From: Candidatus Micrarchaeota archaeon | Lineage (GTDB): Archaea; Micrarchaeota; Micrarchaeia; Anstonellales; Bilamarchaeaceae | Direction: 5' to 3' | DNA length: 64,000 bases | Assembly: GCA_040753215.1 (NCBI GenBank) | Contig: JBFMEZ010000025.1 | Coordinates: forward strand, 5,528-69,527 | Shown: in pieces, positions 6,439-42,500 of the stretch | Position numbering within the stretch: position 1 is the first letter of the stretch | Layout of the letters: each line of letters starts with the position of its first letter | Notes under the pieces: generated by a model | What the model was told of the DNA's origin: nothing | What the model saw: only the letters and a program-made list of their open reading frames with translations | Database searches by the model: none | Made by a program: the position numbers and the translations under genes

Positions 6439-6516
6439 CAGGCCAAAAGCACCACGGAACCTGATTTTGCAGACGTAGCAACTGGAAACCCGAAACTGGG
6501 AACGAAATCAATGATT

Positions 6517-6830: not shown

Positions 6831-7628
6831 ATGATTATAAAGAATCGTTCTGAAAGGAAGCGCATGAAAAAATCATCGCGCGTTCCCGCATCGGCAAGGC
6901 GGGCAGAACCGAAACCGGAAACCGGAAGCTGGAAACTGGAAGCCGGCGGCCGCACGCCCACCGGGATATCCGGGCTGGATGATTTGCTTGAGGGAGGGTT
7001 CCCGGAAGGGAGCTTCGTCCTTCTCTCGGGAACGTGCGGCACGGGCAAGTCCATCTTCGGGATGCAGTTCGTTTGCCGGGGCGCGGAGAGGGGCGAGCCG
7101 GGAGTGTTCCTCTCCATGGAGGAGGAGCCGGAGAGGATCATTAAGGACATGTCCGGCTTCGACTGGGATATAAGGAAGCAGGTGGACGAGGGGCGGCTGG
7201 CGATAGCCAAGCCGGAGATTTACGAGAGCGACGCGATAAAGAGGATGATAGTGGATTCCGTGGAAAGGACCGGCGCGAGGAGGCTGGTGATAGACTCCTT
7301 CACGCTGCTCAGCTCCTACCTGGAGAATCCCTTCGACATAAGGAAGATGATTTTCGACATAAGCAGGGAGATAAAGAAGCTGAACTGCACCACCCTCTCC
7401 ATCTCGGACATGCCGGAGGGCGGCGCATCCTACTCCATAAACGGGTTCGAGGAGTTCGTCTCCGACGGCGTGGTCGTGCTGTCCCTTGCGCAGGCGGGCA
7501 CGACCGGGGCGTACACGCGCGCGCTGCTCGTGAGGAAGATGAGGGCGACGTCGCATTCGCTGAAGATGGTTCCGTTCAAGATTGAGAGGGAGGGAATAAA
7601 GCTCTACCCCGAGGCGGAGCTTTTCTGA
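6831..7628 (+). CDS. KaiC-like / RadA-RecA superfamily ATPase, second paralogue
   Basis: GISGLDDLLEGGFPEGS...SGTCGTGKS Walker A and an LVIDSFT Walker-B-like block. The N-terminal ~40 aa contain a heptamer-repeat stretch (KPETGSWKLEAGG), so the true start may lie downstream or use a non-ATG codon. Confidence 0.75.
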   Translation: MIIKNRSERKRMKKSSRVPASARRAEPKPETGSWKLEAGGRTPTGISGLDDLLEGGFPEGSFVLLSGTCGTGKSIFGMQFVCRGAERGEPGVFLSMEEEPERIIKDMSGFDWDIRKQVDEGRLAIAKPEIYESDAIKRMIVDSVERTGARRLVIDSFTLLSSYLENPFDIRKMIFDISREIKKLNCTTLSISDMPEGGASYSINGFEEFVSDGVVVLSLAQAGTTGAYTRALLVRKMRATSHSLKMVPFKIEREGIKLYPEAELF

Positions 7629-12478: not shown

Positions 12479-13015
12479 TTACTGCACAACCCCGTTAAGC
12501 GTGCCCGCCTCTATATATGAGAAGCCGGTTACACGGTCCGTGTAATTTATCCTCATTACGACCTGGAAGGACGTGCCTGCGCCGGTCGTGTAGTTGAACG
12601 CGCCCACCGGGATGGTGTCGGATATCTCGCCCACGCCGAGCGAGATGTTGAGGTCTCCGGAGTCTATCATGTCGCCCGCGTATGTAGCGTTTATGGAATT
12701 CACGGAGATTGGTACTCCCACCTGGTTCTGGAGCTTCACCGAAAGGTCGCCGCCCGAATTAAGGATGAAGGCGGGGACCGCGACCTGCGTGAAAGCGACC
12801 GGCCTGTTGCCGATGAAGGAGCCGATGTCGAATATTCCCAGCACGAAAAGGGCAGCGGCTACAAGAAGAACAATGAGGAGCGCCCATCCGTATGTAATGA
12901 GGAAATCCAGGGCGGCTTGGCCCCTTCGGTTTCGGGTTTCCTGTTTTCCGTTTCCCGCTTCCGGAAACCGGGGGCCGGCAACTGGAAACCGGCTTGCAGC
13001 CTGGCCTTTTTTCAT
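12479..13015 (-). CDS. archaeal type IV pilin-like protein (class III signal peptide, DUF361-type), paralogue 1
   Basis: MKKGQAAS...RRG|QAALDFLITYGWALLIVLLVAAALFVLGIF is a prepilin-peptidase site (K/R-G|Q-x-x-x-D/E) followed by a hydrophobic helix. The leader carries an in-frame heptamer-repeat insertion (RFPVAGPRFPEAGNGKQETRN). The ATG at 13015 is preferred over the tracked 13171. Confidence 0.7.
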   Translation of the reverse strand: MKKGQAASRFPVAGPRFPEAGNGKQETRNRRGQAALDFLITYGWALLIVLLVAAALFVLGIFDIGSFIGNRPVAFTQVAVPAFILNSGGDLSVKLQNQVGVPISVNSINATYAGDMIDSGDLNISLGVGEISDTIPVGAFNYTTGAGTSFQVVMRINYTDRVTGFSYIEAGTLNGVVQ

Positions 13016-13234
13016 TTTTTTCACCGGGTGAATAATGATAATACGGATTATAAAAGTTAGCACGAGCCGTAGGAGCATCCCTGTATCTGGTCGTACGCGC
13101 ACACGTAGCCGGTGTCGGGCCCGCAGTGGTCGTAGGTGCATGGGTCGCCGTCGTCGCAGGATGGCGGGCACACGCAGCCGAGCAGCAGGAGCGCGAGGAA
13201 GAGCAGCAGGAATGCGGCGCGTATTTTCTCCATC

Positions 13235-13723
13235 TCAGCTCACCTCCCCGAAAACCGTTCCCTTCGAAGCATAAGCAAACCCGGTTGCGCGGTCTTCGTA
13301 CCCTATCTTTATCGCGATTGCATAGCGCATGTCCGGGCTGATGCCGGTGAGGTTTCCCACCGGGATTATGTTCGATACTTCGCCAATGCCCAGCCGTGTA
13401 TTTGTGCACCAGGCGGTTATGGTCTGGTTCTGGTACGTTGCATTTATGTAGTTTATCCTTATCGGCCTTCCCGCATCGTTCCTGAGCTTCAGGAGAAGCA
13501 GGCCAGAGGGCGAAACCCTGAAAGCCGGGACTGAGACCTCGCTAAACCCTGCCGCCCTGTTGCCTATGAACGAGCCGACGTCAAGTATGCCCAGGGAAAA
13601 GAGGGATGCGCCTATGAGGATGAGCAGCACAACCGCCCATCCGTAGGTCATCAGGAAATCAAGCGCCTGGCCTTTATGGTTTCCTGTTTCCGGTCTTCGG
13701 TTTCCGGAATGCATTACGGACAT
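13235..13723 (-). CDS. archaeal type IV pilin-like protein, paralogue 2
   Basis: MSVMHSGNRRPETGNHKG|QALDFLMTYGWAVVLLILIGASLF is a class III signal. Leader codons are made of GGAAACC-type repeats. The mature domain is similar to paralogues 1 and 3 (IGNRxxGF, SVPAF, INATY). Confidence 0.7.
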   Translation of the reverse strand: MSVMHSGNRRPETGNHKGQALDFLMTYGWAVVLLILIGASLFSLGILDVGSFIGNRAAGFSEVSVPAFRVSPSGLLLLKLRNDAGRPIRINYINATYQNQTITAWCTNTRLGIGEVSNIIPVGNLTGISPDMRYAIAIKIGYEDRATGFAYASKGTVFGEVS

Positions 13724-13765: not shown

Positions 13766-14272
13766 CTATTCCACGATTCCGTTCAGCGTCCCGGTCTCCA
13801 CGTAAGTGAAGCTCGTTGTGCGGTCGGTGTAGCCAACCCTCATAGTAACCACGTAGGAGTCGCCGCTGCTCAGCCCGGTGAACGCGCCCACGTTTATGGT
13901 GCTGGAGGTCCGCCCGATGCCAAGGTTCGTGGAAGGCGCGACGCTCACCGTCTGGTTGGTGTAGGTCGCGTTTATGGAATCTATCCTTATCGGGTTCCCG
14001 ACCTGGTTCTGGAGCTGCAGCGTTAGCGTCCCGTTTGACGCGATTTTGAACGCCGGGACCGCCACCTGCGTGAAACCCACTGCCCTGTTCCCTACGAAGG
14101 AGCCGATGTCGAATATCCCGAGCACGAAGAGTGCCGCTGCAATCAGGACAATCAGCAGTATGGCCCATCCGTAGGTCATCAGGAAATCCAAAGCCGCCTG
14201 GCCCTTCCTGTTTCCTGTTTCGGGTTTCCGGTTCCCGGAAACCTCTCTCTCTTGGCTTTTTCCCGAATACAT
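13766..14272 (-). CDS. archaeal type IV pilin-like protein, paralogue 3
   Basis: MYSGKSQEREVSGNRKPETGNRKG|QAALDFLMTYGWAILLIVLIAAALFVLGIF. Same family as the two downstream genes. N-x-S/T sequons are present. Confidence 0.7.
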   Translation of the reverse strand: MYSGKSQEREVSGNRKPETGNRKGQAALDFLMTYGWAILLIVLIAAALFVLGIFDIGSFVGNRAVGFTQVAVPAFKIASNGTLTLQLQNQVGNPIRIDSINATYTNQTVSVAPSTNLGIGRTSSTINVGAFTGLSSGDSYVVTMRVGYTDRTTSFTYVETGTLNGIVE

Positions 14273-14354
14273 ACTGGTATCACCTTGGGGTGAATAGGTT
14301 AAAAAGTTTATAAAGCTTGCTCCAGAAGCCCTGTTCGGTGGGGTATTGAAGGTC

Positions 14355-14490
14355 TTGGGGTCTTGAATGGTCTACGGGTCCCGGGGGTCTTGAATGGTCT
14401 ACGGGTCCCGGGGGTCTTGAATGGTCTACGGGTCCCGGGGGTCTTGAATGGTCTACGGGTCCCGGGGGTCTTGAATGGTCTACGGGAGCT
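14355..14490. repeat. tandem repeat, 27-bp unit (TCTTGAATGGTCTACGGGTCCCGGGGG) x5
   Basis: Five head-to-tail copies at 14361, 14388, 14415, 14442 and 14469 with no spacers, so not CRISPR-like. Located in the divergent region between the pilin paralogues and the adhesin gene. Confidence 0.85.
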
Positions 14491-14531
14491 GAAGACTATG
14501 CAAGACACGGAGACTACCGGTTGGTGATGAG

Positions 14532-14909
14532 TTGGTCCAAAATCCAAAGAACCTGCGTGTCTACGGGCAGGCATTCATGCTGTCCGCTGATGTTTACAAC
14601 CGTTTCCGGGATATCAAAACAAGTCTCAGGCTCAAGGACCAGCTTTTCGGGTCTGTGTCTTCTGTCTGCGCAAACCTGGCCGAGATGGGCGCCTTTGAGA
14701 GCAAGACGCAGCAGAAGCAGAAACTCATAACCTGCGTGGGGGAATGTAACGAAGCTGAGTATTGGTTTGATTTGTGCAGGGAGGTCGGCTTGCTTGGGGA
14801 GAAGGAGCATGGGGAATTCACCGGCAAGCTCAGGAAGGTACGGGTAATGCTCTTCAACCTGCTTGGCTCGGTAAAAGAGGACATCGGAAAAGAGGGTAGG
14901 AAGGCATGA
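14532..14909 (+). CDS. four-helix-bundle protein (23S rRNA intervening-sequence protein family, TIGR02436-like)
   Basis: CANLAEM...ESKTQQ...LEEL-type helical pattern (VSSVCANLAEMGAFESKTQQKQKLITCVGECNEAEYWFDLCREVGLL) characteristic of this small protein family. Confidence 0.55.
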   Translation: MVQNPKNLRVYGQAFMLSADVYNRFRDIKTSLRLKDQLFGSVSSVCANLAEMGAFESKTQQKQKLITCVGECNEAEYWFDLCREVGLLGEKEHGEFTGKLRKVRVMLFNLLGSVKEDIGKEGRKA

Positions 14910-14962
14910 GAAGAAAAATGCAGAAACAAGACGTGAAGGCACCCAAGACCAGAAGACCACCG

Positions 14963-15150
14963 CAAGACCTGGAGACCACGGTTGTGCGGTCTCGGAGTCC
15001 TGGAGTCTCGAGAGTCTTGAGAAACGTGGGGACTACGCAAGACCCCCAAGACCTGGAGACCACGGTTGTGCGGTCTCGGAGTCCTGGAGTCTCGAGAGTC
15101 TTGAGAAACGTGGGGACTACGCAAGACCCCCAAGACCTGGAGACAGCCTC
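14963..15150. repeat. tandem repeat, 84-bp unit x2.2, directly upstream of and in frame with the adhesin start
   Basis: Copies at 14963-15046, 15047-15130 and a partial 15131-15150. Translates as PQDLETTVVRSRSPGVSRVLRNVGTTQD. Shares GCAAGAC/GGTCT motifs with the 27-bp array and with the 5' end of the pilin gene at 18230. Confidence 0.85.
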
Positions 15151-15160
15151 AAGACCGTGC

Positions 15161-17218
15161 ATGAAAGGACAGGCGAGCCTTGAGAATTTGATAATGCTCG
15201 GCATAGGGCTCGCGGTCGCGACAGTATTCTTCTATTTTGCGCTCACGATGCTGGACGACAGCATAGCCGCTTCGCAGGCGAAGGACGCGGTGAACAGGAT
15301 TGCGCAGGAGGCGGATTACGTATACGCGCTCGCGCCAGGGACGACGAGGTATGTGGATTTCACAATCCCGCGCGGGACGGAGCTGATTGAGATAAGCGGG
15401 AGGAGGGTGCACATGCAGGTGCAGCTCTCCAGCGGGCTGACTGATTTCTATGCGAACACGCAGGCTGAGCTTGTGGGGGCAATTGACCTGAACCCCGGGC
15501 CCGCGAGGGTGGTGGTGAAGCATACCGAATCGGGAAACGTGCTGGTTGGGAACAAGGAGCTTTCCCTTTCCCCGGAAGTGCTTGAATTCTACCTCCAGAG
15601 GGGGCAGGGCGACAGCGGTCAGATAAACGTAACGAATGGGGGGGAGAGGAACCTTACCGGGATTGCTGCGTACGTGCTCGGGGACATACTGGACATGGTG
15701 ACGATAACCCAGCCCTCTGCGACGCTTGCGCCCGGGCAGAACTCGAGCATTTCTGTTTCTGTCCTTATTCCTGCTGCGAAGCCTTTCGGAACCTATTACG
15801 GGAGCGTGTATGCAAACTCAACGGAAGGGAGCTGGGACGAGACTGCGGTAAAGATTGTGGTGAGCGGGGGGGCGGCTGTTTCATGCGCGCTCTCCCCGGC
15901 CGTTGCGAACGTTTCGATAGGGTTCACGCAGGATTTCACGAGCACGTGCTATGATTCCGGGAGCTACGAGACAACGTGCCAGAACCTGAACTGGTATTCA
16001 GATGCGGGGGACATGATTCCATCCACTTCTCCTACGGGAAGCACTCTCTATGTGAATACGTATGGGACCCTGGTTAATGCGACCTCAGGCTCTTTCACTT
16101 GCAGCGCTTCGCTGAATTATCCGGATGCGAACGGGCCTCTTGTGGCCAATCTTACCTACTATCCACCTTCTCCGCTCAATGCAACCGCGAACATAACCGT
16201 GAATGCTACGGGCGACGATAGCACCACCGGCGGCTCCACCATAAAGATGTGCAGGGTGAACGTGGACTCGGGAACATGGATGAACATGGATGCCGTGGAC
16301 GGGAGCTATGACGAGGTTGTGGAGCCGGTCACAAAAAATATAGGGAATTATTCCTCGGGAAACCATACGATATACGTGCAGTGCCAGGATTACTACAACA
16401 ACTGGGGGCCGGTTTCGAGCACCACGTTCTTCGTTACGGATACTTCGGGCCCGAGCGTGAGCAACATATTCATAGACCCTGCGGGGGTGTGCAACCTGGA
16501 GACCGCAACCGTGTATGCGACCGCGACGGATACGGGTGGGATAGTGAGCATGTGCCAGTTCAGGCTGGATGCGGGCGGATGGAGCAACATGGAGGCGGAT
16601 GATGGGGCGTATGATGAGCAGACGGAACTGGTGAGATACTACCAGACCTCCGGCTTCACTGCGGGGAACCATACATTGTGGGTGAGGTGCACGGACCAGT
16701 ACAACAATACAGGAACCCCTGCAAGCCAGGTGGTGGCCATTCCCACATGCAACCCCGAGCTTTTCATGAACCCCGGATTCGACACCTATACCGGCTCGGT
16801 GAACAATGCGAACTGGCAGTTCTGGAACGAGGACAGGTTTAGCGGAGGGATTCTCGCCCCGGACGATGGGAGGACGATATTCGGGACATCGGTGCTTATG
16901 GCAAATGCGCAGATATGGCAGGGAGTTAGCATCAGCGGGTCTACGAATTATACGATGAGGGTGTGGGTGAAGAGCAGCAGGCCGCTCTCGGTGCCGATGA
17001 AATGGGGGGCGAGGGACAACAGCGGAAGGTGGCTGCAGCCTGGCGGAGGATGGGCAACGAGCACGTATTATTTCACGCAATATGTGAGTTCCTCATGGAC
17101 GCAGTTCAGCACCACGTTCGTAACGAGGGCGGGGGCGAACGCGGTCAGGATATACTACAGGATGGACACGCCTCCGGGGTACATATGGATAGATGATGCA
17201 AGCCTGAGGCGGACTTAG
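15161..17218 (+). CDS. large pilin-like surface adhesin: class III signal peptide, repeated beta-sandwich (CARDB/Ig-like) domains and a C-terminal carbohydrate-binding-module-like domain
   Basis: MKG|QASLENLIMLGIGLAVATVFFYFAL is a textbook DUF361-type prepilin signal at ATG 15161. The tracked ORF starts at 14906 and runs through the 84-bp repeats without a stop, so a long leader is possible. It is Thr/Ser/Asn-rich with many N-x-S/T sequons. The C-terminal GFDTY...NWQFW...YTMRVWVKS...YYRMDTPPGYIWIDD resembles CBM_4_9. Confidence 0.7.
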   Translation: MKGQASLENLIMLGIGLAVATVFFYFALTMLDDSIAASQAKDAVNRIAQEADYVYALAPGTTRYVDFTIPRGTELIEISGRRVHMQVQLSSGLTDFYANTQAELVGAIDLNPGPARVVVKHTESGNVLVGNKELSLSPEVLEFYLQRGQGDSGQINVTNGGERNLTGIAAYVLGDILDMVTITQPSATLAPGQNSSISVSVLIPAAKPFGTYYGSVYANSTEGSWDETAVKIVVSGGAAVSCALSPAVANVSIGFTQDFTSTCYDSGSYETTCQNLNWYSDAGDMIPSTSPTGSTLYVNTYGTLVNATSGSFTCSASLNYPDANGPLVANLTYYPPSPLNATANITVNATGDDSTTGGSTIKMCRVNVDSGTWMNMDAVDGSYDEVVEPVTKNIGNYSSGNHTIYVQCQDYYNNWGPVSSTTFFVTDTSGPSVSNIFIDPAGVCNLETATVYATATDTGGIVSMCQFRLDAGGWSNMEADDGAYDEQTELVRYYQTSGFTAGNHTLWVRCTDQYNNTGTPASQVVAIPTCNPELFMNPGFDTYTGSVNNANWQFWNEDRFSGGILAPDDGRTIFGTSVLMANAQIWQGVSISGSTNYTMRVWVKSSRPLSVPMKWGARDNSGRWLQPGGGWATSTYYFTQYVSSSWTQFSTTFVTRAGANAVRIYYRMDTPPGYIWIDDASLRRT

Positions 17219-17682: not shown

Positions 17683-18243
17683 GTGCTGGGCACTGGAAAC
17701 CGGAAACGGGAAACTGGAAACAGGAAAGGTTACGCGACGGGCGTGGACTTCGTGCTCTCAATACTCATATTCTCGATAGTGCTTGCATACTCCATTGGCT
17801 CGTATTACTACTATCTTGGGGAATACCGGGCGGTGGAAGCGAGGAAGAACCTTGAGGTTTCGGCGCTTGCGCTTACGGACACGCTGCTCAAAAGCCCGGG
17901 GATTCCGGGAGACTGGGAGGCGGCCGCGGATTGGGAGGAATGGATGGAGGAAGAGGAGGAGGAAGAGGAGTGGATTCCCACGGGCCTGGAATCCATAGGG
18001 CTTGTGCGGAGGGCGAATGTGCTCGAGCCGGCGAAGGTCTTCGCGCTGGATATGATGGACTATAATTATTCCAGGGAAGTGCTTGGGATTGGGGCGGATT
18101 ATTTCCTCTACATAACAACCGTGGGCGGGATTACAGTGATGGAGAAGGGGGTGCGGATGGAGAACGCGAGCGTCATCTCGGTGAGGAGGATGGCGCTGTA
18201 CAACGGGACGTACGCATGGGTGACTTTGGATGTTTATGGATAA
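17683..18243 (+). CDS. pilin-like protein (class III-type signal), paralogue 5
   Basis: GTG start preceded by GGAGGT 7 nt upstream. MLGTGNRKRETGNRKG|YATGVDFVLSILIFSIVLAY. The leader is repeat-encoded and an acidic EEEEEEE stretch follows. Confidence 0.55.
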   Translation: MLGTGNRKRETGNRKGYATGVDFVLSILIFSIVLAYSIGSYYYYLGEYRAVEARKNLEVSALALTDTLLKSPGIPGDWEAAADWEEWMEEEEEEEEWIPTGLESIGLVRRANVLEPAKVFALDMMDYNYSREVLGIGADYFLYITTVGGITVMEKGVRMENASVISVRRMALYNGTYAWVTLDVYG

Positions 18244-18295
18244 GGATCGTCTTGGAGTCTTGAGTAGTCTCCATGTCTCCCGAGACTTGAGGACC

Positions 18296-18757
18296 ATGCA
18301 AGACACGAAGACCCCAAAGACGCGGGGACTAAACAGGAAAGGGCAGGTATTCACCATCGATGCCCTTCTCTCGGTCACGGTCCTCCTGCTTTTCATCTCC
18401 GCACTTGTTGGATTTTCGGTGAGCGGGAGGTTTGTGCGCAGCAGCATGCACGATGAGAAGCTCGCAGAGGACGTGCTCGTGGTTCTGGACGAGAACGGGC
18501 TGCTCACAAGGAACGCCACCTACCTCAATGCGACGCTTTACAACATCCTGGACGGGACCAGGCACTACGGGGTGGAAACCAGCGACTACGAATACCACGG
18601 GGGCAGTTTCGTCCTGGTGGGGAACGGGAGCGCGGGGGAGGTGCCGGCGGAATTTGATGAAGTGAGCGTGAGCGAGAGGAGCGCGGCAAGCTACGAGCCG
18701 GGGAAGGGGCCGCAGTTCGCGAACTTAACTATTGTGAGGCTGTATATATGGAGATGA
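18296..18757 (+). CDS. archaeal type IV pilin-like protein, paralogue 6
   Basis: MQDTKTPKTRGLNRKG|QVFTIDALLSVTVLLLFISALVGF. The ORF track extends to 18230 through sequence related to the 84-bp repeat, so the start is uncertain. Confidence 0.6.
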   Translation: MQDTKTPKTRGLNRKGQVFTIDALLSVTVLLLFISALVGFSVSGRFVRSSMHDEKLAEDVLVVLDENGLLTRNATYLNATLYNILDGTRHYGVETSDYEYHGGSFVLVGNGSAGEVPAEFDEVSVSERSAASYEPGKGPQFANLTIVRLYIWR

Positions 18758-19599: not shown

Positions 19600-19650
19600 A
19601 TGTTTCCGGTTCCCTGTTTCGGGTTTCCGGAAACTGGCAACGGGGAACTG
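19600..19650. repeat. inverted heptamer-repeat array (GTTTCCN)n...(GGAAACN)n forming a potential hairpin
   Basis: GTTTCCGGTTCCCTGTTTCGGGTTTCCGGAAACTGGCAACGGGGAACTG, between the pilin 7 stop and the CBS gene start. Confidence 0.7.
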
Positions 19651-33218: not shown

Positions 33219-33274
33219 GGGGGGTTATGATTACGCTAAAGAGAAGGGGGAACTCCCCCTTCTTCTTGCTGCCA
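33219..33274 (+). repeat. conserved ~58-nt element, copy 2, ending in GCCA, which forms the first four nt of the downstream tRNA
   Basis: GGGGGGTTATGATTACGCTAAAGAGAAGGGGGAACTCCCCCTTCTTCTTGCTGCCA. CTAAAGAGAA lies at -35 to -26 relative to the tRNA 5' end, like a TATA box. The hairpin is AAGGGGG-AAC-TCCCCCTT. Confidence 0.6.
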
Positions 33275-33414
33275 CGGTAGCTCAGCTGGGAGAGCACTCG
33301 AGGTCTTCTGAGATTAATTTCATTTGACCGGTGAAGCTGAAGTTCCGTTCCCGCAATGGGGCGGATATTCTCCCGGAAACCGAGGGGTCGCTGGTTCAAA
33401 TCCGGCCCGTGGCA
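33271..33414 (+). tRNA. intron-containing tRNA (144 nt precursor, intron about 70 nt); isotype not resolved
   Basis: 5' GCCACGG-TA-GCTCAGCTGGGAGAGC (acceptor and D arm) and 3' ...CCGAG-GGGTC-GCTGGTTCAAATCCGGC-CCGTGGC-A (anticodon 3' strand, variable loop, T arm, acceptor) are canonical. About 70 nt in between cannot be folded into an anticodon loop without a non-canonical splice. Confidence 0.7.
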
Positions 33415-34223: not shown

Positions 34224-37200
34224 CTAGTGATGGAGCTTCCTTGCGCCCCTCGGGACGGGCGGAGGGCCCTGCACAAGCCCCCTGAATCTCTTAGGGAGCG
34301 GCAGGCCGGGACTCGGCGCCGGCCTCGGCGCATTCATGGAAGCGGCAATCCGCCCCCTAAGTTCGGGCCCGAAGTATCCTGCGTAGTATGCGGGCAGCTC
34401 CCTCCTGTCCCTCGCCATCATGCGCTCGTCTGCCAGCCTCTTGTCCACCGCATCCCTCATGAGCTCGCCTATTTCCGCAGCCGTGAACATGCCGGATGCT
34501 ATGAGCTGCGACGCCGCAGACGCCTCGCCGCGGTACACCACTGCCTTTACCGCCGCCCATTTTAGCAGCAGCTTCTGCCATTCTGCGGGCGGGCTGCCGG
34601 AGAACGCCGCGGACATCGGCACACCGACGTCCTTTCCGCACTGCACCGCGCATAGAAGCGCGGAGAATGGCGAATCCAGCTCTGCCGCGAAATTCAGCGC
34701 CTCGTATTTCTCCTCAAGGTCGCCCTGCCCCCCCCGGAGGGCCATTGGCTCGAGCAGCTTTTCGCCTATTGCCGGGCTGCCTGCTGCCACCCCGAGCACT
34801 TCGGAAATGACCTCGGGGAGCATCCTGGAATCGCCAATTATGGCTGCGAAATGCTCTGCCGCCGGCCCGCCTGCGGCCGCCATGAGCTGCGCCGCGGTTT
34901 TTCTTGAGGCGATTTCAAGGTCGAGCGGGAGAAGGTCCTGCGGATGAACCCTCAGGCGCACCATGCGCTCCAGCTCGTCAAGGGGCACGTACGGGCCAGC
35001 CGCCTTCAGCGCGTCTTCCGCGCACGTGCTGACCATCCCGTTCCTGTGCCTGAGCAGCCCTGCGAGGAGCCTCGTGTTCTCCCGGAACTCCGGGAGCACG
35101 CTGAGCTCCTTCGGCGTTTCCCTTCCGCTCTGCAGCACCCTGGTAAACAGCTCCGCGGCCTGCACCGCCTTGTTCTCGTCCCCGGAGCGCAGCATCGCGC
35201 CTATCTGCTCCTGTGCGCCCCTTCCCATCAGCCTCAGGACGTTGTACACCCTTGCGGCCAGCTTTTCCCCGCCTTCCGTGCTGAGGACGGCGGCGACGCT
35301 GTCGAGGAGGTTTATGTTCCTCATCTCGGAAAGGACCATCGCGACAACGCCCTCGGAAAGCTCCTTCATGCCTATCGCATTCAGCAGGCATTCCCTGGCC
35401 TTCTTTTCTGTCGCCTCGCTCTGCCTGTGGCCTTTCTTCTTTCTGGCGTAGCCGGCGAGCTCGCCTATGGTCACGAGCGCGTTCCTGCGGTATTCCGGCG
35501 GGTAGCGCGAAAAATCGACGGAAAGGACGATGTCCGAAAGCTGGCCAACCGCGAGGTCGCCGTTCCTCACCAGGATTGTGCGTGCCTCCCTGAGGCGGTC
35601 CGCATTGTCAGCGGCCTCCACATCCCCGAAGAGGTGCGCCTTCACGCACGCCTTTATCAGGTCCGCGCCGCAGTCCTTCTGCTCGCGGAAAATCTTGAAA
35701 GCCACGAGCCCGAGGTCTGAAAGCTCGCCCCTGTCGAAGGCTGCGCGCATCAGGCAGGGGCGGACCTCCCCCTTTCCGTAGGCAGCCGAGAGGGCTTCCT
35801 CCACCCTGCGGCCGGTCCTCACGGCCTCGTCCCCGAGGCTCTTCCCGGAAACGAGCCCGGAGAGGAGCCTGTATGAAGCGTCGGAATTTATGCGTGCGAG
35901 CAATACCGCGATTGCCGCGGCTTCCTTCGGGGCGATTCCCTCCTTCTCCCTGTCAGCCAGGAACCGCCCGGCATGCTTCGTTGCCCCTTCCGCGAAAACC
36001 GGCAGGGATGCGAAATCCTGCATAGCGGCAACATCTGCGGCATCCATGTCCTTTATGAGGGGAAGCATGTGGCCTGCGAGGGCGGCGCACCTGCCGCTCT
36101 CCAGCAGCCCGCCGAAGGCCGATGCGAGGCCGGAAAGCGCGAGCGCCTCCTTCGGGGTGAGTGCCCCTTCCCGGGATTTCCTTTCCGCGTATTCGAGGAG
36201 GATTGCTTCCCCGTGGGCCGCGTCCAGCTTGATTGCGAGGTCCTGCAGCTTCTCGAGCTGGGCAGGGTTCATTCTAACTGCCTCCGGGAGCGCATGCTTC
36301 AGGAACTCCACGCCCTCCTTTGCGCCTATGTCTTCAACGACTATGGAAAGGAGGTGGGCACCGTCTGCGCCGAGGCCCTCTGCGGCGGCTTCCGCATACC
36401 TCAGTATTACGGGGACCGCGCCCTTTCCTATCTTCCTGGCGAAGCGCGCGGCTGCGACAAGCTGCTCGTCGTCCATTCCCTTCAGTACCGGCAGGGAGCT
36501 GGCGAGGATGCGGTTTGCGTCATCATCCGCAAAGCCGGCTTCCATCGCAAGGGAAATCATGAAGCGGCATTCTTCCGCGGTCAGCGTGCCTTTTGAGGAT
36601 TCCGCCTCCGCGTAAGAGGCGAGGTGCGCGACAGGATTGCTGCCCTTTTCCGCCATCTCCATCACCAGCTGGCTGATGAGCGGGTCGTGCACGCGGCCGA
36701 GCGTCCTGCTTTCGGAAAGCGCGACTGCGAGCATTCCTGCGGGTTCCATTGCGGCGAGGAGGGATGCCACGCTTTCCCTGAGCTCCGGCTGCTGCTGGTA
36801 GGCGTTGAGGAGCAGCGGGACCGAGGTTCCTGCGGCCTGCCCGCCAACGAGCGCCGCGGCGCTCTTCCTTGCCGCGAAGGGGGCGTTGTAATCGCCCAGG
36901 ACTGCGCACACGCGGCCGAAATCGGCTTCGGCCTCCATGATTTCCATCGCCCTGGAGTTCCCGGAAGCCGCCTCCAGCAGCCTTGAATATGCGTAGTGCA
37001 CGTCGGCATCATCGCCCTTGGCCGAGAGGAACAGCTCGGCGGCCCTTTCAACCGCAACCTCAGGGCTGCCGGGGTCCAGAAGCGTATCCTCAAGGTGGCG
37101 CAGGGCATCGAAGCTGCCCTCGTGCAGCGCCTGCATTATGGTGTGGGAGGCCTCGGTGTCGCCCTCCGCAATCGCGGAGGCGAGGAGCGGGTATGCGTCC

Positions 37201-40200
37201 CTGTGCCCAGGGGCAAGCTCCGCAAGAAGGCCCGCGGCTCCGCGCCTGACATTAACATCTTCGTTGTGAGCCAGCAGCTCCCCGAGGAGGGGCCCTGCAC
37301 GGCTGAAATCCATCGCAAGGAAGTACCTCCGGGTGTCCAGGCCTTTTCCGCCCAAAAGTATGAGCCGGCTGGCCGCACCCTCTGCGACCTGCTGGGAATC
37401 GTGGGTGAGCATCGGGGCGAGCACATCGCACGCCTCTTCGGTGCCCATCTGTCCCAGCACGGATATCGTTCTGAGGTTTTCCCCGTCCTCCCTGCCTGCG
37501 TATATGGACGGCAGGAGGCGGAGGCCGCCGGAGTGTATGCTTGAAACCGCGAGCTTCCTGACTTCGGCGTTCCCGCCGGCTGTTGCGGAACAGAGCACGG
37601 GGTAAACATCTTCAGGGTAGCGCACCGCGAATTCCGAGAGCAGGGTGGCGGCTGAGACGCCGGCTGCTTCGCTGAGCTCGCTGCCATCGCTGTCCAGCAC
37701 CGCTTCCTTCAGGAGGGCGAGCGAGCGGTTGAAATCCAGGTTCCTGAAATATTTGTGGGTGTCAGTGCCATCTGCTCCGTGCGCGGCGAGCAGCACACGG
37801 GCCGCCTCTGCGGAAACTGCGGGCTCCGTGTCGAGCAGCACGGGCGAGAGCGCGGCAAGCGCCTCCTGCGTCCCTATCTCCCTCAGGACCGAGACCGCGT
37901 TTAGCTTGCCCTCCCTTGTGCATGAGCCGAATTCCTCGGACACGGCCCGTATCACTGCGCCGTCCCCCCGGGATATGAGCATGGAGCATACGCCCATCGC
38001 GACATCCGGGTAGTCCAGGGCTCCGGCGAGGCCGTTGAGCGCCGCCGGGTCGTTTATGTCCGCCAGCCTCTGGAGGGCTGCGAGGCGGGCATCGGAGTCC
38101 TTCGCCCTGTGGAGCAACTTCACGAGCCTTGCTACCTCCCTGCCGGATTCCCTGGAAGATGCGACCAGCTCCGGAGCGGGAGGCGAGTAAACTGTAGGCC
38201 CCGCGTTTTCTGGCCCGGATTTTCCCACAAGCCCCTGCGGAGGCGGGTATAGGGATGTCGGCCTCGCTTCCAGAGGTATTCCATCTGCATGGGCCTCTGC
38301 TGTTTGCGGCACCGGAGCTGGCGGCTCTGGTTCGGCCGCAGGAACATGCGAGGTTGCGCCCGGCGTTTCCGGAGCCGGCTGGCCTTCAGCGGCAGGTGCA
38401 GCAGGTTCCTCGCCCAAAACATCCTCTTCCCTCACCGGAGCAGGCGGCTGGGACGGGGTTTCTGGCAAACCAAACCCCCGCCCTCCCGGTCCCACTTCGG
38501 CTCTGGAGGTTTGGTTTGGTCTCCCGTTTCCTGTTTCCGGTTTCGCGTCCGCTGTTGGCTGCGGAGCGCCTGCTGCCTGCGCTTCTGCCTTTTCTCCTGC
38601 AAGCGCTGCGGCTATCTCTTCCGGTGTGGGGGCACGTCTCTGAAACGTCCTCCATTTATCCGGAGGCAGCAGTTTTCCATCGGGGCCGAGCAGCGCGGGG
38701 CCCACATCCGGCGCAGGTGCGGGGCCTTTCATTGTCGGGTGCGCGGAAGGAACATCAGCAACCGGCTGGGGAGTGGAAACTGTAGAGTGGGAACCGGGAA
38801 CCGGAAGCGGGGAACTGGTTGCTGGCTGCGCTGCGGGCATCCCTACTGCGGTCCCTCCCCTCGCAGCGTCTGCCATCTCTTGTGAACCTGAAACGGGCGG
38901 CTTTCCTGCCGTAAGGTCAATCACCCGCTGGAACTCGCCGCTTTCGGAAGCATCCGGCGCATGTGGCACAATTTCCAAGTGCAGCTTCTTTGCACCCGGT
39001 TTCCCGCTTTCTGTTTCGGAACTGGAAACCGGAGACAGGAAACCGGAAACTGCGCTGCCACCTGCGGGCGGGACTGCGTGACCGGCAACCGTTCTGCCTC
39101 TCAGCGCCTCTGCCATTGCGAGGCTCTCGGGGGCAGCGGAGGAAACCGGCCCGGAACCGGAAACTGGAAGCCGGGAACCGTGAACCGGCTCTGTTGGTGC
39201 AGCTGCGGTGGCGGCTCTTGGCGCTTCCGCTGGGGGAGTCGGCACTTCGGGAGTTTCCGGCAACCGGGAACCGGAAACTGGAAGCTGGGGTGCCGGGTAA
39301 GGAGGAGGAAGCGGCTTAAGGAGGCCTGAATCGCCTTCTGAGCCGGCTGCGATTGTGGCAGCGAGGCCTATGGGCGCGGCGATTTCGACCGCATGCACGC
39401 GCGGGCCGGAGCCGTTTGCAGGAGGGGCTGCTGGAACCGTGGGCCTTGCTTCACTCTCCTTTGCGGCCTCAAGCTCGCGCTCGACAACCTTAAGGAATTC
39501 CAGCACTGCCGGCCCGGAGGGAAGCCCTATCCTTTCGGAATTTATCTTGTCCAATGCCGCGTGCATCAGTTCCGGCGCAATGGAACCGTTGCCGCAGAGA
39601 AGGTAGATGTGGAGCTTTGCAGGGTAGGGGTGGCCCGCATCTATGCACAGCCCGGAGAAGAATGCCGTCTCCTCATCAATGCCGCTGAACTGCTTCCTCT
39701 CGGAAAGGAGGATTGCGAGTGCCTTCTTTCCCACATCCTCGGGAATGAAGCCCCTCTGCACCCTGTTGTCTATCTGCCTTTTCGTCCTTATTTCGGCCCT
39801 GCAGACCGTGAAGAGCTTGTCCGCCTCTTCGGGGGTTTTCACCGACGCCTCGCCTGCGCGAACACGCCTAAGGGCTTCCTCCGCGGCCATGGCAGCGTAG
39901 TTGTCGGCCGGCGGCTTCCATTCCTTTCCGACTGCGCGCATGAGTGCGGCGAGCCGCTCGGGCATCGCGAGAACTGCGTTCCAGCCCTCGAGTTCTGCCT
40001 CCTTTTCGGCAAGGGCTGCGGGAGCGGGTTCCTTCTTTCTCATGCCCCCAACAGACTTGCCGAGGGTTTCAACAAAACCTTCCGCGGTCCTGCGCAGCTT
40101 CTCGCCCTGGAAAATATTGAGCAGGCCGGAGCGGCCCACGCGCACTCCGCCCATGGTTCTCGGGCCTTCCGCGAGCATAGTATAAGCGTTATCTTCGGGC

Positions 40201-42500
40201 TCTGCGCCGAACGCTGCCTTCCACGCCTTCTGCAGGAGCTGGGCGAGCTCCGGGTCCGCCTGCTCTATTTCGAGGATGTGGAGCCTCCTGGCCGCCTCTC
40301 CCATTTTGATTACATAGGCAAGTGCAGCGGCCTTGACCAGGTCTTCGGCGGCCTTATCCGTTTCCGGTTTCCCGCTTCCAGTTTCCGGCAACGGAGAACC
40401 GGGAACTGGCAACTGCTGGGCGCCTTCTGCCGCCTCTTCCGTGCTGCCTGAATCGTACCATCCGAGATATCTCTCGTCCGCAACGAGCCGCCGCACCTGC
40501 TCCTCCCTCGGCAATCTGAGGAGTTCCGGCGGGACTATTGCGCCTGCCTTCTGCCTTATTGCCTGCTCCAGCCCGGCCGCAAGCGAATCCATGGAATCGT
40601 TCAGCCCTCCAACGGCATCCGGCCCCAGGATTTCGGCGTTTGCAAGGAAAACCCTGCAGGAATCCCTCACAAATGAGCGCACATCAGACTGGAATTCCTT
40701 TTCTTCCTTAAGGGAGGCGAGGACCTGCGGGCGGGTGAGCAGGATGCCTGAAGCGAGGTATCTCCTCTCTGCCTCAAATGCAACGGAATAGGAATAGCCG
40801 CCCTCTTCTGCAATCATCCATATGTATTCGCCGCTGCTGCCCTGCAGCTTAAAGCGTGCCTGGAGAAGAATGTCGCCGGCGGAATCCAGGTCGGACGGGA
40901 TGACGAAATGGGTCCCGGAGAGCCGGATTGCGGCATCGGCTTCCTCATCCGTATAGCCGGAACCCTCTGCGGCCTTACTTATCAGCTTTGCGGCATCCTC
41001 TTCTTTCAGGAGATACTCCTTTGCCGCTGCCAGGTATCCTGAGGCCGCTTCCTCATCCTGGAGAATAGTGCCCTTTGCCTCTGCAGCATTCTGGGCCGCT
41101 ATCCAGGCTTTCATCGGGAATCCGCCTTTATCACCGGCTTTTCCTACAAGGACATGGTTCTGGATTTTCTGCTCTTCGGTGAGGACTGGCGGCCTGGGCA
41201 TCACGGTTGTGGATTCGGATTCGTGGATGAGCATCTGCCTTGTTTCCTCAAGGACATGGCGGGAATATTCATCGGGATGCATGCTGGGGAGCTTTACCGG
41301 GACCGCGTCGCCTGAGCCGATGTCCGCCTTTCCTGAAAGGCGCTCGGCTGCGCGCATGTAAACCCTCCTCGGGAATCCGCCGGATTTCCCGGAACCGTAT
41401 ACGTAGGATGATGGGTTGCTGAGGAAGGAGTGCTCTGCCCTCATCTCTGCAAGCACCTCTTCGGAGACTATTCTCTTTCCTGAAGAGGAGTGCCTTCCGG
41501 CTACTGTGGTGATGACCGGGGTGCGGAGCGGGCCGGCGGGAACTCCCCTCCCGCCGAGCATCCTCACATATTCGTATCCGTGCCTCGCCTGCATTAGGAG
41601 GTCGAGCGCTTCGGATTCCAGCGCCTCGCGCCTTTCCTTGCGGCCGTGCGTGACGTGCATCCCGAGGGCCTTTGCAGGCGGCTTCGGGAACCAGTTGTAT
41701 TTTGCGCAGAGGGCGAGGGCTGAGGCGGCTTCCCTTGCGGTGAAGCCGTTCTTTTTCGCGAGCCTGCGGATGAATCTTTCAGTTGCATTCGGGATTCCGG
41801 CTTCCGGTGAAACAACCACTTTGGGGGGAGCGGGCTGCGGCGCGGGCGGCTGGGGCGGAATGGCAGGGGCAGTAACCGGCCGGGTTGCCATGGACGATAC
41901 AGAAGCTGGAGATGCGGACGAGACTGGGGTGGAAGCAGGAACTGGCAGCCGGGAACTGGAAACTGGAGACCGCGGGGCTGCCATGCCTTTTGGATGCGGC
42001 TGCGCTGCTTTGCTTAGGAGGCCGAGGGCTCCAGCCTCATCCGCCGGAATGCTGCCGGAGCAGAAGGAGATGCCCCTTGCCCTTAGGATGTCATCTTCCG
42101 TGAAACGGGTGTCCCTGCCGGCTGCCTTCCTGAGGAGGCGCATGAGCTTTTTTTCGGAGCCCGCCCATTCCTCTGCGCGCACGAGCAGGTCGCGGGCGCT
42201 GTTTCCTGTGAGCCTTGTGCCGGGCGGAAGGTCGAGGCACAGGTCCTTTGCAAGCCCGATTACGGCTGCTGTGCAAGGGTACCCTTTATTGCCTGTGTAT
42301 TCCACCACGTACCAGTTTGTGGCGATGTCGAGCAGGTTGCGCGCAGAGGATGCATCAAATGCCGAGCCTTCTGGCAGGCGCTTTACTAAGCCCTTGGCTG
42401 CCGCAAGCGCATCGTTGGTATATCCATCGTACTCTGCGACATTTTCAAGCAATGCAAGGTTCCTTTCGGTTCCAGCTGGGAGTGCAGTAGTGTCTCTCAT
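34224..42500 (-). CDS. giant protein (2758 aa): N-terminal globular regions, ~450-aa Pro/Ala-rich low-complexity linker, ~1500-aa array of PBS-lyase/HEAT-like repeats
   Basis: 8.3-kb open frame in 60% GC DNA, which cannot be chance. The C-terminal half is repeated helical units (e.g. DSDARLAALQRLADINDPAALNGLAGALDYPD, NEDVNVRRGAAGLLAELAPGH). The linker contains in-frame GGAAACC-family repeats giving PVSGS and PETGN peptides. Confidence 0.7.
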   Translation of the reverse strand: MRDTTALPAGTERNLALLENVAEYDGYTNDALAAAKGLVKRLPEGSAFDASSARNLLDIATNWYVVEYTGNKGYPCTAAVIGLAKDLCLDLPPGTRLTGNSARDLLVRAEEWAGSEKKLMRLLRKAAGRDTRFTEDDILRARGISFCSGSIPADEAGALGLLSKAAQPHPKGMAAPRSPVSSSRLPVPASTPVSSASPASVSSMATRPVTAPAIPPQPPAPQPAPPKVVVSPEAGIPNATERFIRRLAKKNGFTAREAASALALCAKYNWFPKPPAKALGMHVTHGRKERREALESEALDLLMQARHGYEYVRMLGGRGVPAGPLRTPVITTVAGRHSSSGKRIVSEEVLAEMRAEHSFLSNPSSYVYGSGKSGGFPRRVYMRAAERLSGKADIGSGDAVPVKLPSMHPDEYSRHVLEETRQMLIHESESTTVMPRPPVLTEEQKIQNHVLVGKAGDKGGFPMKAWIAAQNAAEAKGTILQDEEAASGYLAAAKEYLLKEEDAAKLISKAAEGSGYTDEEADAAIRLSGTHFVIPSDLDSAGDILLQARFKLQGSSGEYIWMIAEEGGYSYSVAFEAERRYLASGILLTRPQVLASLKEEKEFQSDVRSFVRDSCRVFLANAEILGPDAVGGLNDSMDSLAAGLEQAIRQKAGAIVPPELLRLPREEQVRRLVADERYLGWYDSGSTEEAAEGAQQLPVPGSPLPETGSGKPETDKAAEDLVKAAALAYVIKMGEAARRLHILEIEQADPELAQLLQKAWKAAFGAEPEDNAYTMLAEGPRTMGGVRVGRSGLLNIFQGEKLRRTAEGFVETLGKSVGGMRKKEPAPAALAEKEAELEGWNAVLAMPERLAALMRAVGKEWKPPADNYAAMAAEEALRRVRAGEASVKTPEEADKLFTVCRAEIRTKRQIDNRVQRGFIPEDVGKKALAILLSERKQFSGIDEETAFFSGLCIDAGHPYPAKLHIYLLCGNGSIAPELMHAALDKINSERIGLPSGPAVLEFLKVVERELEAAKESEARPTVPAAPPANGSGPRVHAVEIAAPIGLAATIAAGSEGDSGLLKPLPPPYPAPQLPVSGSRLPETPEVPTPPAEAPRAATAAAPTEPVHGSRLPVSGSGPVSSAAPESLAMAEALRGRTVAGHAVPPAGGSAVSGFLSPVSSSETESGKPGAKKLHLEIVPHAPDASESGEFQRVIDLTAGKPPVSGSQEMADAARGGTAVGMPAAQPATSSPLPVPGSHSTVSTPQPVADVPSAHPTMKGPAPAPDVGPALLGPDGKLLPPDKWRTFQRRAPTPEEIAAALAGEKAEAQAAGAPQPTADAKPETGNGRPNQTSRAEVGPGGRGFGLPETPSQPPAPVREEDVLGEEPAAPAAEGQPAPETPGATSHVPAAEPEPPAPVPQTAEAHADGIPLEARPTSLYPPPQGLVGKSGPENAGPTVYSPPAPELVASSRESGREVARLVKLLHRAKDSDARLAALQRLADINDPAALNGLAGALDYPDVAMGVCSMLISRGDGAVIRAVSEEFGSCTREGKLNAVSVLREIGTQEALAALSPVLLDTEPAVSAEAARVLLAAHGADGTDTHKYFRNLDFNRSLALLKEAVLDSDGSELSEAAGVSAATLLSEFAVRYPEDVYPVLCSATAGGNAEVRKLAVSSIHSGGLRLLPSIYAGREDGENLRTISVLGQMGTEEACDVLAPMLTHDSQQVAEGAASRLILLGGKGLDTRRYFLAMDFSRAGPLLGELLAHNEDVNVRRGAAGLLAELAPGHRDAYPLLASAIAEGDTEASHTIMQALHEGSFDALRHLEDTLLDPGSPEVAVERAAELFLSAKGDDADVHYAYSRLLEAASGNSRAMEIMEAEADFGRVCAVLGDYNAPFAARKSAAALVGGQAAGTSVPLLLNAYQQQPELRESVASLLAAMEPAGMLAVALSESRTLGRVHDPLISQLVMEMAEKGSNPVAHLASYAEAESSKGTLTAEECRFMISLAMEAGFADDDANRILASSLPVLKGMDDEQLVAAARFARKIGKGAVPVILRYAEAAAEGLGADGAHLLSIVVEDIGAKEGVEFLKHALPEAVRMNPAQLEKLQDLAIKLDAAHGEAILLEYAERKSREGALTPKEALALSGLASAFGGLLESGRCAALAGHMLPLIKDMDAADVAAMQDFASLPVFAEGATKHAGRFLADREKEGIAPKEAAAIAVLLARINSDASYRLLSGLVSGKSLGDEAVRTGRRVEEALSAAYGKGEVRPCLMRAAFDRGELSDLGLVAFKIFREQKDCGADLIKACVKAHLFGDVEAADNADRLREARTILVRNGDLAVGQLSDIVLSVDFSRYPPEYRRNALVTIGELAGYARKKKGHRQSEATEKKARECLLNAIGMKELSEGVVAMVLSEMRNINLLDSVAAVLSTEGGEKLAARVYNVLRLMGRGAQEQIGAMLRSGDENKAVQAAELFTRVLQSGRETPKELSVLPEFRENTRLLAGLLRHRNGMVSTCAEDALKAAGPYVPLDELERMVRLRVHPQDLLPLDLEIASRKTAAQLMAAAGGPAAEHFAAIIGDSRMLPEVISEVLGVAAGSPAIGEKLLEPMALRGGQGDLEEKYEALNFAAELDSPFSALLCAVQCGKDVGVPMSAAFSGSPPAEWQKLLLKWAAVKAVVYRGEASAASQLIASGMFTAAEIGELMRDAVDKRLADERMMARDRRELPAYYAGYFGPELRGRIAASMNAPRPAPSPGLPLPKRFRGLVQGPPPVPRGARKLHH

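Follow-up and report, generated by a model that had tools for sequence, protein, structure and literature searches.

The window analysed here is a stretch of 64,000 nucleotides from a Candidatus Micrarchaeota archaeon (assembly GCA_040753215.1, contig JBFMEZ010000025.1, positions 5,528 to 69,527 of the forward strand). Between a pilin-like gene and a divergently transcribed adhesin-like gene, it carries a gene for a four-helix-bundle protein that is bracketed by two tandem repeat arrays. The arrangement looks like a cassette of the intervening-sequence (IVS) type, placed in the leader of an archaeal mRNA and not in an rRNA; it has the appearance of a mobile element and is not a demonstrated on/off switch. 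The arrays very probably belong to this inserted cassette and are not spacers of a promoter. For the locus as a whole, we favour with moderate confidence a selfish IVS-like cassette in a transcribed leader, whose arms would serve as processing or insulating hairpins. The features on which this reading is built are listed below in window coordinates.

14342..15166, plus strand: 825-bp block of left array, four-helix-bundle gene and right array, delimited by blastn against the relative L052
14351..14491, plus strand: left array, a perfect repeat of 27 bp in 4.8 copies
14532..14909, plus strand: four-helix-bundle protein gene, 125 residues, TTG start, of the 23S_rRNA_IVP / TIGR02436 / Avd-like family
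14936..15156, plus strand: right array, 84 bp in 2.3 copies with a degenerate lead-in, every unit being one B element (described below)

The evidence for insertion comes from the syntenic pilin-adhesin locus of three relatives, L052, L053 and L056. L052, whose adhesin is 88% identical at the amino acid level, is the closest, and L053 and L056 are more distant. The L052 contig is colinear with the window over about 6.9-24 kb, the shared order running from a KaiC-like ATPase, two PorA genes, MASE3, the minus-strand pilins and the adhesin to four small pilin-like genes, CBS, the T2SSE ATPase and two T2SSF genes. In the blastn comparison, homology ends at 14341 and restarts at 15167 (6683 and 6749 in L052), and 825 bp in the window take the place of 65 bp of leader-coding DNA. 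A four-helix-bundle gene is missing from L052, where 73 bp separate the pilin from the adhesin. The block is missing from all three relatives, and it is on this ground that the arrays are assigned to the cassette. All three retain the TATA box and start region as well as the G↓Q site, where the arrow marks signal-peptide cleavage. What lies between the start and this site differs in each case: a non-repetitive leader in L053, four GGTGCYG heptamers in L056, five GGAAACN heptamers coding MRKKARTGNRGLETENGKLLG↓ in L052 and the 825-bp cassette in the window. A cassette that is ancestral and was lost in the relatives was considered and rejected as less parsimonious, given three empty sites, including two in outgroups, each with an intact yet different leader.

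Both tandem arrays announced by the original prediction are present. Tandem Repeats Finder places the left one at 14357-14486 (period 27, 4.8 copies, 100% matches) and the right one at 14953-15144 (period 84, 2.3 copies, 98% matches), with copy numbers as read from a short-read metagenome-assembled genome (MAG) of perfect repeats. The sub-repeats in both are 8-9 nt long. The 27-bp unit consists of three sub-repeats of about 9 nt, GGTCTTG, GGTCTAC and GGTCCCG, and its 25-mer core occurs five times in the window against 0.00 expected from shuffles. The 84-bp unit has four forward sub-repeats (GGTCTCG/GAGTCYYG) followed by inverted CAAGACC-type sub-repeats. The arrays had been said to share sequence cores; they are indeed related, but the cores are reverse complements and the arrays are mutually inverted. 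Thus GGTCTTG is found six times on the plus strand at 14351-14473 in the left array and seven times on the minus strand at 14944-15156 in and around the right array, and only twice elsewhere in the 64 kb. The inversion includes 32-nt arms that are 78% complementary, and the arms made of amplified 27-bp and 84-bp units are 130 and 220 bp long. A metagenome scan with a 20-mer of the 27-bp unit gave 0 matches. Neither the arrays nor the non-coding flanks conserved at homologous loci match an Rfam family; in the window Rfam detects two tRNAs only and no rRNA.

The two arrays can be traced to a common building block, the B element, a hairpin-forming repeat of about 85-95 nt in which GGTCTYG-type sub-repeats are followed by their complement, CAAGACC. 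Two copies lie outside the 84-bp array.

14438..14531, plus strand: complete B element directly 5' of the four-helix-bundle gene, made of the last left units and the junction
18243..18340, plus strand: solitary B element, 96 bp in place of 27 bp of L052

These two copies and the two 84-bp units are homologous, with a mean column identity of 68% in a four-sequence alignment, and fold as imperfect hairpins. The copy ahead of the gene forms a strong hairpin (-38.2 kcal/mol, z -4.1), in which GAAGACTATGCAAGACACGGAGAC is the pairing partner of the last left units. The next pilin-like gene owes both its ATG, at 18296, and its leader, MQDTKTPKTRGLNRKG↓, to the solitary element (-30.3 kcal/mol, z -1.4); this is the sister copy that accounts for the related sequence noted earlier at that gene. 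The best explanation of these relations is that the 27-bp array is an amplified part of one B copy and the 84-bp array an amplified whole copy. In the minimum free energy structure of 14330-15165 (z -3.9), the left and right arrays pair with each other.

The gene between the arrays is a four-helix-bundle gene, as had been proposed. Its product matches PF05635 (23S_rRNA_IVP; E 3.6e-16, 59.7 bits, cutoff 33.8) and TIGR02436, "four helix bundle protein" (57.7 bits, cutoff 24); a Candidatus Micrarchaeota MAG encodes a protein with 100% identity to it. The AlphaFold2 model, with a predicted local distance difference test score (pLDDT) of 92.5, consists of four helices (residues 9-25, 32-52, 58-84 and 90-124). 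Foldseek aligns this model to 2GSC (Xcc0516) with a template modelling (TM) score of 0.83 and a root-mean-square deviation (rmsd) of 1.4 Å, to 2RLD (BT_0352) with TM 0.76 and rmsd 1.5 Å, and to 4DWL, the accessory protein Avd of diversity-generating retroelements (DGRs), with TM 0.75 and rmsd 1.7 Å; the profile match to 2RLD has an E value of 1.4e-13. The SxxxNxxE motif of the family (PMC3936711) is present as SSVCANLAEM, in which C46, A47, N48, L49, A50, E51 and M52 are invariant in a 35-sequence alignment. A Shine-Dalgarno-like GGTGAT at 14523-14528 precedes the TTG start at 14532. The window holds one copy of the gene. Members of the TIGR02436/PF05635 family are known to intrude into operons, for example between the cas genes cmr3 and cmr2 (PMC3936711), and are also found within rRNA insertions of the candidate phyla radiation.

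The position of the cassette relative to the promoter and the neighbouring reading frames is defined by the following features.

14307..14314, unstranded: palindromic TATA box TTTATAAA, which with the next TTGCNCCAGAAGCCCT forms the conserved divergent promoter core
14346..14366, plus strand: remnant of the ancestral adhesin start, whose TTG now opens a 6-codon open reading frame (ORF), MKVLGS and stop
14363..14527, plus strand: 54-codon ORF through the left array (MNGLRVPGV repeated), open by composition
14906..15160, plus strand: open frame from ATG 14906 through the right array, a putative 85-residue leader extension
15161..17218, plus strand: pilus adhesin-like gene, 685 residues from ATG 15161, with the class III-type N-terminus MKG↓QASLENLIMLGIGLAVA
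13766..14272, minus strand: divergent pilin-like gene with a 24-residue leader containing GGAAACN heptamers (14204-14240)

It is true that the arrays are flanked by divergent pilin and adhesin genes and occupy sequence that either codes for the adhesin leader or comes before it. TTTATAAA is the sole TATA-like element within 14100-15400, and TTTTATAAAGSTTGCNCCAGAAGCCCT, comprising the TATA box and the region downstream of it, is common to the window, L052, L053 and L056, where it is followed by a TTG or GTG start. By position, the TTG at 14346 is the homolog of the TTG at L052 6689, where the adhesin of that relative starts. Since this only TATA box, conserved in four genomes, is left of both arrays, the arrays are, for the adhesin, downstream of both the promoter and the ancestral start and are not a promoter spacer; the idea that a change in copy number alters promoter spacing is therefore contradicted. 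In L053, the public adhesin call (MYLDFIKLAPEALAV..., L053 3001-3060) begins 5' of the conserved TATA box and reads through it, and the true start is probably a GTG about 45 nt further 3'. Start calls in array-rich and leader regions of these MAGs are prone to over-extension.

The locus is archaeal type IV pilus-like with class III signal peptides, and its genes are called pilins by motif and context. Their N-termini have [KR]G↓Q followed by a hydrophobic segment, and the syntenic L052 region encodes a PF00437 protein (T2SSE ATPase) and two PF00482 proteins (T2SSF); no pilin hidden Markov model matched in Pfam and TIGR profile searches of the window proteins. The adhesin N-terminus at 15161 reads MKG↓QASLENL, a class III-type start right after the 84-bp array, where a signal peptide had been expected, and its C-terminus gives a weak CBM_4_9 match. 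The adhesin orthologs P0036-P0044 (54-88% identity) all have G↓Q(A/S/G)S(L/M)EN, with leaders of 15-33 residues, compared with just 3 residues from ATG 15161. Heptamers in the leader of the divergent pilin are missing from its L052 ortholog (MYARKG↓Q), and the neighbouring repeat-encoded pilin leaders differ from those of L052 by +21 bp and +54 bp, that is, by whole units, from which we infer that repeat arrays in leaders are labile over evolutionary time. To this extent the claimed instability of the repeats holds; a frameshift switch is excluded, because both 27 and 84 are multiples of three and slippage leaves the frame unchanged.

Class III leaders of pilin-like genes in the window are heptamer-coded (GGAAACN; peptide ...ETGNRK...) at 12886-13036 (minus), 13670-13723 (minus), 14201-14272 (minus) and 17683-17730 (plus). 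The pilin in ORF 12479-13171 reads MKKGQ[28 residues, heptamer-coded]GQAALDFL, as if an inverted heptamer element had been inserted in frame, adding 84 bp, between the near-identical GGCCAGGC and GGCCAAGC.

The layout of a four-helix-bundle gene between short-repeat arrays recurs elsewhere. The closest homologs (66-68% identity; L007/L063, L008 = L001, and L004) have arrays on both sides, of the form GGTCTTG.../...CAAGAC or GGTTTTG.../...GAAAACC. Distant archaeal copies with related arrays are found in L010, L037 and L103, in L017 and L018 (Altiarchaeota) and in L046 (Woesearchaeota), and the Draconibacterium locus L051 (Bacteroidota) has direct AGTCGTRM arrays. The array motifs are lineage-specific (GGTTTTG/CAAAACC, GGTCTTG/CAAGAC, CTGGACYC), and the neighbours of the array-flanked copies are unrelated housekeeping genes: EndA and CoaBC, a tRNA and SecD, CarS, and an Asn-synthase-like gene. 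The L010 locus likewise has its downstream array fused in frame to the next gene, CoaBC, whose Flavoprotein domain begins at residue 31. A tblastn search of plasmids with a bacterial homolog gave 36 records, mostly from Nostocales, and the same search with the archaeal protein gave no match. Among the cyanobacterial plasmid copies inspected, five of six have flanking short-repeat arrays, and these are inverted in four (L057, L058, L060 and L061), with GGAGCAG- or GGAGA-type units upstream and their complement downstream. L057, L058 and L060 carry two or three GAGCAG upstream and none downstream, and three CTGCTCC downstream and none upstream; L061 has a GGAGA-type inverted pair, and L059 has long direct GGGAGAG arrays. 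In nearly all array-flanked copies, as judged by eye, the G-rich arm is upstream on the coding strand. The number of predicted arm-to-arm pairs is 32-85 in array-bearing cassettes versus 0-25 in array-less loci. By an inverted k-mer score, 6 of 116 loci exceed the 99th background percentile, an enrichment of about fivefold, and 10% lie above the 95th. Three other statistics, namely 6-mers shared across flanks of 250 nt, clusters of exact 5-mers and RNAduplex applied to flanks of 200 nt, are uninformative for imperfect arrays and were not used as evidence. A protein-guided metagenome scan found nothing nearer than 68% identity.

Other conserved contexts of the family were seen among the same loci. 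In L019-L045 and many of L063-L142 (for example L038 3700-4700), a different module contains a hairpin of about 100 nt (GGGGAAGTTTTGCTCGCTTCACTCC...GGAGTGAAGCTCGCCGTAAAACTTCCCC). This module, found with 51 of 116 Micrarchaeota homologs, also has an ORF of about 26 residues, ending in ...G[KR]W and a stop, that overlaps the gene start, as well as downstream hairpins, heptamers and TAGCGGAGC; the module lacks a reverse transcriptase as well as any Rfam match. The window itself opens, at 1-30, with ...GTGAAGCTCGCC, the 3' half of the hairpin of this module. Altiarchaeota-type copies (L014, L016, L074, L079, L083, L093, L101 and similar) have a common upstream non-coding stretch (...CCAGTGCTCACCGCTCA...GCAGTAAGCCAAGTTTAAGG) and a small downstream ORF, MYKRLIKGNWY.YRS.R.G..V...YMGKA, and may form a two-gene module. 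In L001 (6407-6680) and L004 (6395-6610), a conserved non-coding stretch of about 250 nt (GCATGAATATGTGGGGCGGGGGTGAAGGATAAGGTTTGT...GGGAGGTGAAATCCATGGCCC) directly follows the cassette; no Rfam family matches it, and it may represent an RNA not yet described.

The closest known parallel is the IVS of 23S rRNA in Coxiella burnetii and Leptospira, in which an ORF of the same protein family is bracketed by complementary, stem-forming ends. The Coxiella IVS, described as selfish, also has tandem short repeats on the 5' side of its ORF: the S23p ORF is preceded by GACAGAT heptamers, two or three copies by strain, and RNase III cuts at the first repeat (PMC4990558). The window cassette is different in that it sits in the leader of an archaeal protein-coding gene, with no rRNA in the window according to Rfam; its arms are much longer, being built of amplified units, and excision is only predicted here. 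Beyond the Coxiella IVS, the literature search found no paper linking the family to flanking repeat arrays, nor any gene-plus-inverted-array cassette outside rRNA.

Based on this parallel, the following course of events can be proposed. In the adhesin gene, the cassette would have displaced a repeat-encoded leader so as to occupy the interval from the conserved promoter and the old TTG start to the prepilin cleavage site. One transcript would run from the single upstream TATA (~14340) through the left array, the gene and the right array into the adhesin. Within this RNA, the left arm, rich in G and U, and the right arm, rich in C and A, may form local hairpins and a long-range stem around the gene, a stem that would mirror those of rRNA intervening sequences, which are cut by a double-strand-specific RNase. 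Processing or insulation at the structure would allow the passenger gene to be expressed from its own GGTGAT ribosome-binding site, and the adhesin mRNA would start near ATG 15161, at a new 5' end, or alternatively the adhesin would be reached by coupling from 14906. Gain or loss of array units would then change the length of the stem and leave promoter geometry and reading frame as they are. The transcription start, the processing and the adhesin start codon are all predicted from the sequence, and the RNA-processing step at the array structure in particular is put forward tentatively.

Several observations weigh against this reading. The junctions between window and relatives show no target-site duplication and no defined ends, and recombination into a pre-existing leader array is an equally possible alternative to insertion of a cassette. 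The four-helix-bundle gene sits between B elements, not in the loop of one hairpin. A strong inverted-array layout is a minority feature, about 5-10% of the 116 loci passing the objective thresholds, and about half of the Micrarchaeota copies (51/116) are in the other conserved context, without flanking arrays. Mononucleotide shuffling of the 3' arm lowers the predicted pairing, often without abolishing it, because the arms are compositionally complementary. Finally, most archaea are not known to possess RNase III.

Heptamer arrays without an associated gene are also present in the window (GTTTCCN and/or GGNAACN in n copies), at 33-93, 6478-6505, 6907-6947, 19602-19650, 38526-38546, 39260-39280 and 43447-43467. 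Those at 33-93 and 19602-19650 are inverted pairs that form near-perfect hairpins (z -3.9 and -3.1), and the array at 19602 is also found in L052, with 6-7-bp indels. One of the gene-less arrays adjoins tRNA-Val, another falls within the N-terminal part of a KaiC-like ORF, and a third takes up the 53-bp spacer ahead of the CBS gene. These GGAAACN/GTTTCCN pairs are like the arrays of Xanthomonas and Nostoc and the short tandemly repeated repetitive (STRR) heptamers of heterocystous cyanobacteria in being stem-loop-capable tandem units of 7 nt. In Xanthomonas and Nostoc, heptamer arrays are strongly enriched, with about 70 convergent plus/minus pairs per Xanthomonas genome; they are mostly intergenic, vary in length between close relatives and have no known function (Rehm et al. 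2015, PMC4692102). That study makes no mention of the four-helix-bundle gene family, whereas here and on the Nostocales plasmids the arrays bracket a member of it, and the unit sequences differ. Two further features of the window lie apart from these arrays. A tRNA match at 33271-33414 (plus) extends over 144 nt, which implies an intron of about 70 nt not called by ARAGORN, and an ORF of 2758 residues at 34224-42500 (minus) occupies a stretch of raised G+C content (0.63 versus about 0.57 in the flanks).

The alternative that survives best, unlikely as we consider it, is that the arrays act at the level of DNA, either as protein-binding sites, iteron-like and serving the encoded pentameric protein, or as recombination sites that mobilise the gene, the RNA structure being incidental. 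As recombination sites they would be terminal inverted repeats and portable homology, with the gene moving between array-bearing sites. Such a role is consistent with the gene-less arrays of like kind across the window (within leaders, next to a tRNA and in the spacers between genes), which vary by indels relative to L052, and with the heptamer array that the L052 site already held. Several genomes have two to four copies of the gene, with many copies at contig ends, and the closest relative that has been characterised, Avd, functions as part of a complex with nucleic acid (PDB 8UB7). However, the cassette has no transposase or integrase and no target-site duplication was found at it, the sub-repeats, with periods of 7-9 bp, do not keep phase with the DNA helix, and the consistent polarity of the arms, G-rich upstream on the coding strand, is what a role in the transcript predicts. 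Comparable in part are MITEs (transposable elements of miniature size that have inverted repeats) and repetitive extragenic palindromic (REP) sequences: these are likewise small, dispersed, hairpin-forming repeats near gene ends that differ between close relatives, but no cognate transposase was seen here, and the arms are tandem 7-9-nt units instead of a unique inverted repeat.

A contingency locus, in which slipped-strand changes in the copy number of the 27-bp and 84-bp arrays tune pilin and adhesin expression by phase or antigenic variation, was the mechanism first proposed for this region and is improbable. The perfect identity of the 27-bp repeats and the 98% identity of the 84-bp repeats imply recent amplification, the whole-unit differences in the neighbouring pilin leaders and the four different adhesin-leader sequences of four relatives point in the same direction, and heptamer number is strain-variable in Coxiella. 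Seen from the minus-strand pilin, moreover, the arrays are upstream of the TATA box. For the adhesin, however, they are downstream of it and of the ancestral start codon, and the tract lies neither between promoter elements nor in coding sequence with a unit that is not a multiple of three. Class III leaders are cleaved off at G↓Q, so the length of this one is unlikely to be antigenic, which makes antigenic variation through a leader peptide unlikely as well. In the opa genes of Neisseria, CTCTT repeats in the signal-peptide region have 5-nt units, and slippage shifts the frame. The window resembles opa in having tandem repeats in the leader or signal-peptide part of a surface gene, and departs from it in its frame-neutral units of 27 and 84 nt, in its passenger gene and in the occurrence of similar repeat-flanked cassettes at housekeeping loci. 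No second assembly of the population was found in protein look-ups and metagenome scans, and the only leader differences seen are between species.

Quite improbable, too, is a translated relay, in which ribosomes would pass from the old start through a chain of ORFs into the adhesin, giving it an 85-residue repeat-encoded leader to be removed by prepilin peptidase; such a relay is compatible with the cassette explanation. The block is tiled by consecutive ORFs (14346-14366, 14363-14527, 14532-14909 and 14906 onward) with overlapping or near-abutting stops and starts: the ORF at 14363-14527 ends 4 nt ahead of the four-helix-bundle gene, and ATG 14906 overlaps the stop of that gene as ATGA, its frame running on into the adhesin. 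The orthologs have leaders longer than the one from ATG 15161, the other pilin leaders at the locus are repeat-encoded, and the in-frame fusion to CoaBC in L010 is of the same kind. The statement that the 84-bp array is open and in frame with the adhesin is correct, from ATG 14906, but its significance is weak. Openness is expected from the sub-repeat composition, as each array leaves two of its three forward frames open and shuffled units keep the required frame of the right array open in 15% of cases (P 0.15). In addition, an 85-residue class III leader would be far longer than that of any ortholog, and ATG 15161 is exactly three codons ahead of the cleavage site, like a new start.

Diversity-generating retroelements are common in DPANN archaea, which counts for the last alternative, a DGR remnant with the gene as Avd and the repeats as debris of template and variable repeats. 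This identity is scarcely credible and is rejected: although the protein shares the fold and superfamily of Avd (4DWL, 8UB7) and PF05635 is the commonest DGR accessory family (PMC10053308), its identity to Avd is 8-10%, no reverse-transcriptase motif occurs in six frames of the 64 kb, the arrays are tandem and inverted short repeats without a long A-mismatched template/variable pair, and no reverse transcriptase is found by Pfam at the L038 locus or annotated in L001-L006.

With the IVS-like cassette, an intact member of the family and its inverted short-repeat arms have come to lie in an archaeal pilus adhesin gene, after the start codon and ahead of the site of signal-peptide cleavage. Similar copies with flanking repeats make up a minority of the loci examined and are found in three archaeal phyla, Bacteroidota and cyanobacteria. 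Scattered cases, such as the heptamers of the Coxiella IVS and the heptamer excess of Xanthomonas and Nostoc, can thereby be brought under one testable model, that of an IVS-like cassette in transcribed leaders. Two cautions follow for annotation: gene starts should not be called by reading through such arrays, and repeats beside surface-protein genes are not to be equated with a phase-variation switch unless unit length and promoter position have been checked.

The family is abundant, is annotated outside DGRs merely as "four helix bundle protein" and intrudes into rRNA genes and operons, its function not being known. A speculative extension, which we hold to be decidedly unlikely, is that IVS/Avd-like four-helix-bundle proteins are the trans-acting partners of a cross-domain class of inverted repeat arrays with short units (7-9 nt). 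If so, gene-bearing cassettes would be autonomous and gene-less heptamer arrays would be their non-autonomous derivatives or targets. The protein would then bind, protect, process or spread these gene-less arrays, such as GGAAACN in leaders and spacers of Micrarchaeota, the GGGAATC arrays that occur as convergent pairs in Xanthomonas and the Nostocales heptamers. It would also explain the build-up of arrays in cleavable pilin leaders, where in-frame junk is tolerated, and would provide a function both for an orphan protein family and for the unexplained excess of heptameric repeats in prokaryotes.

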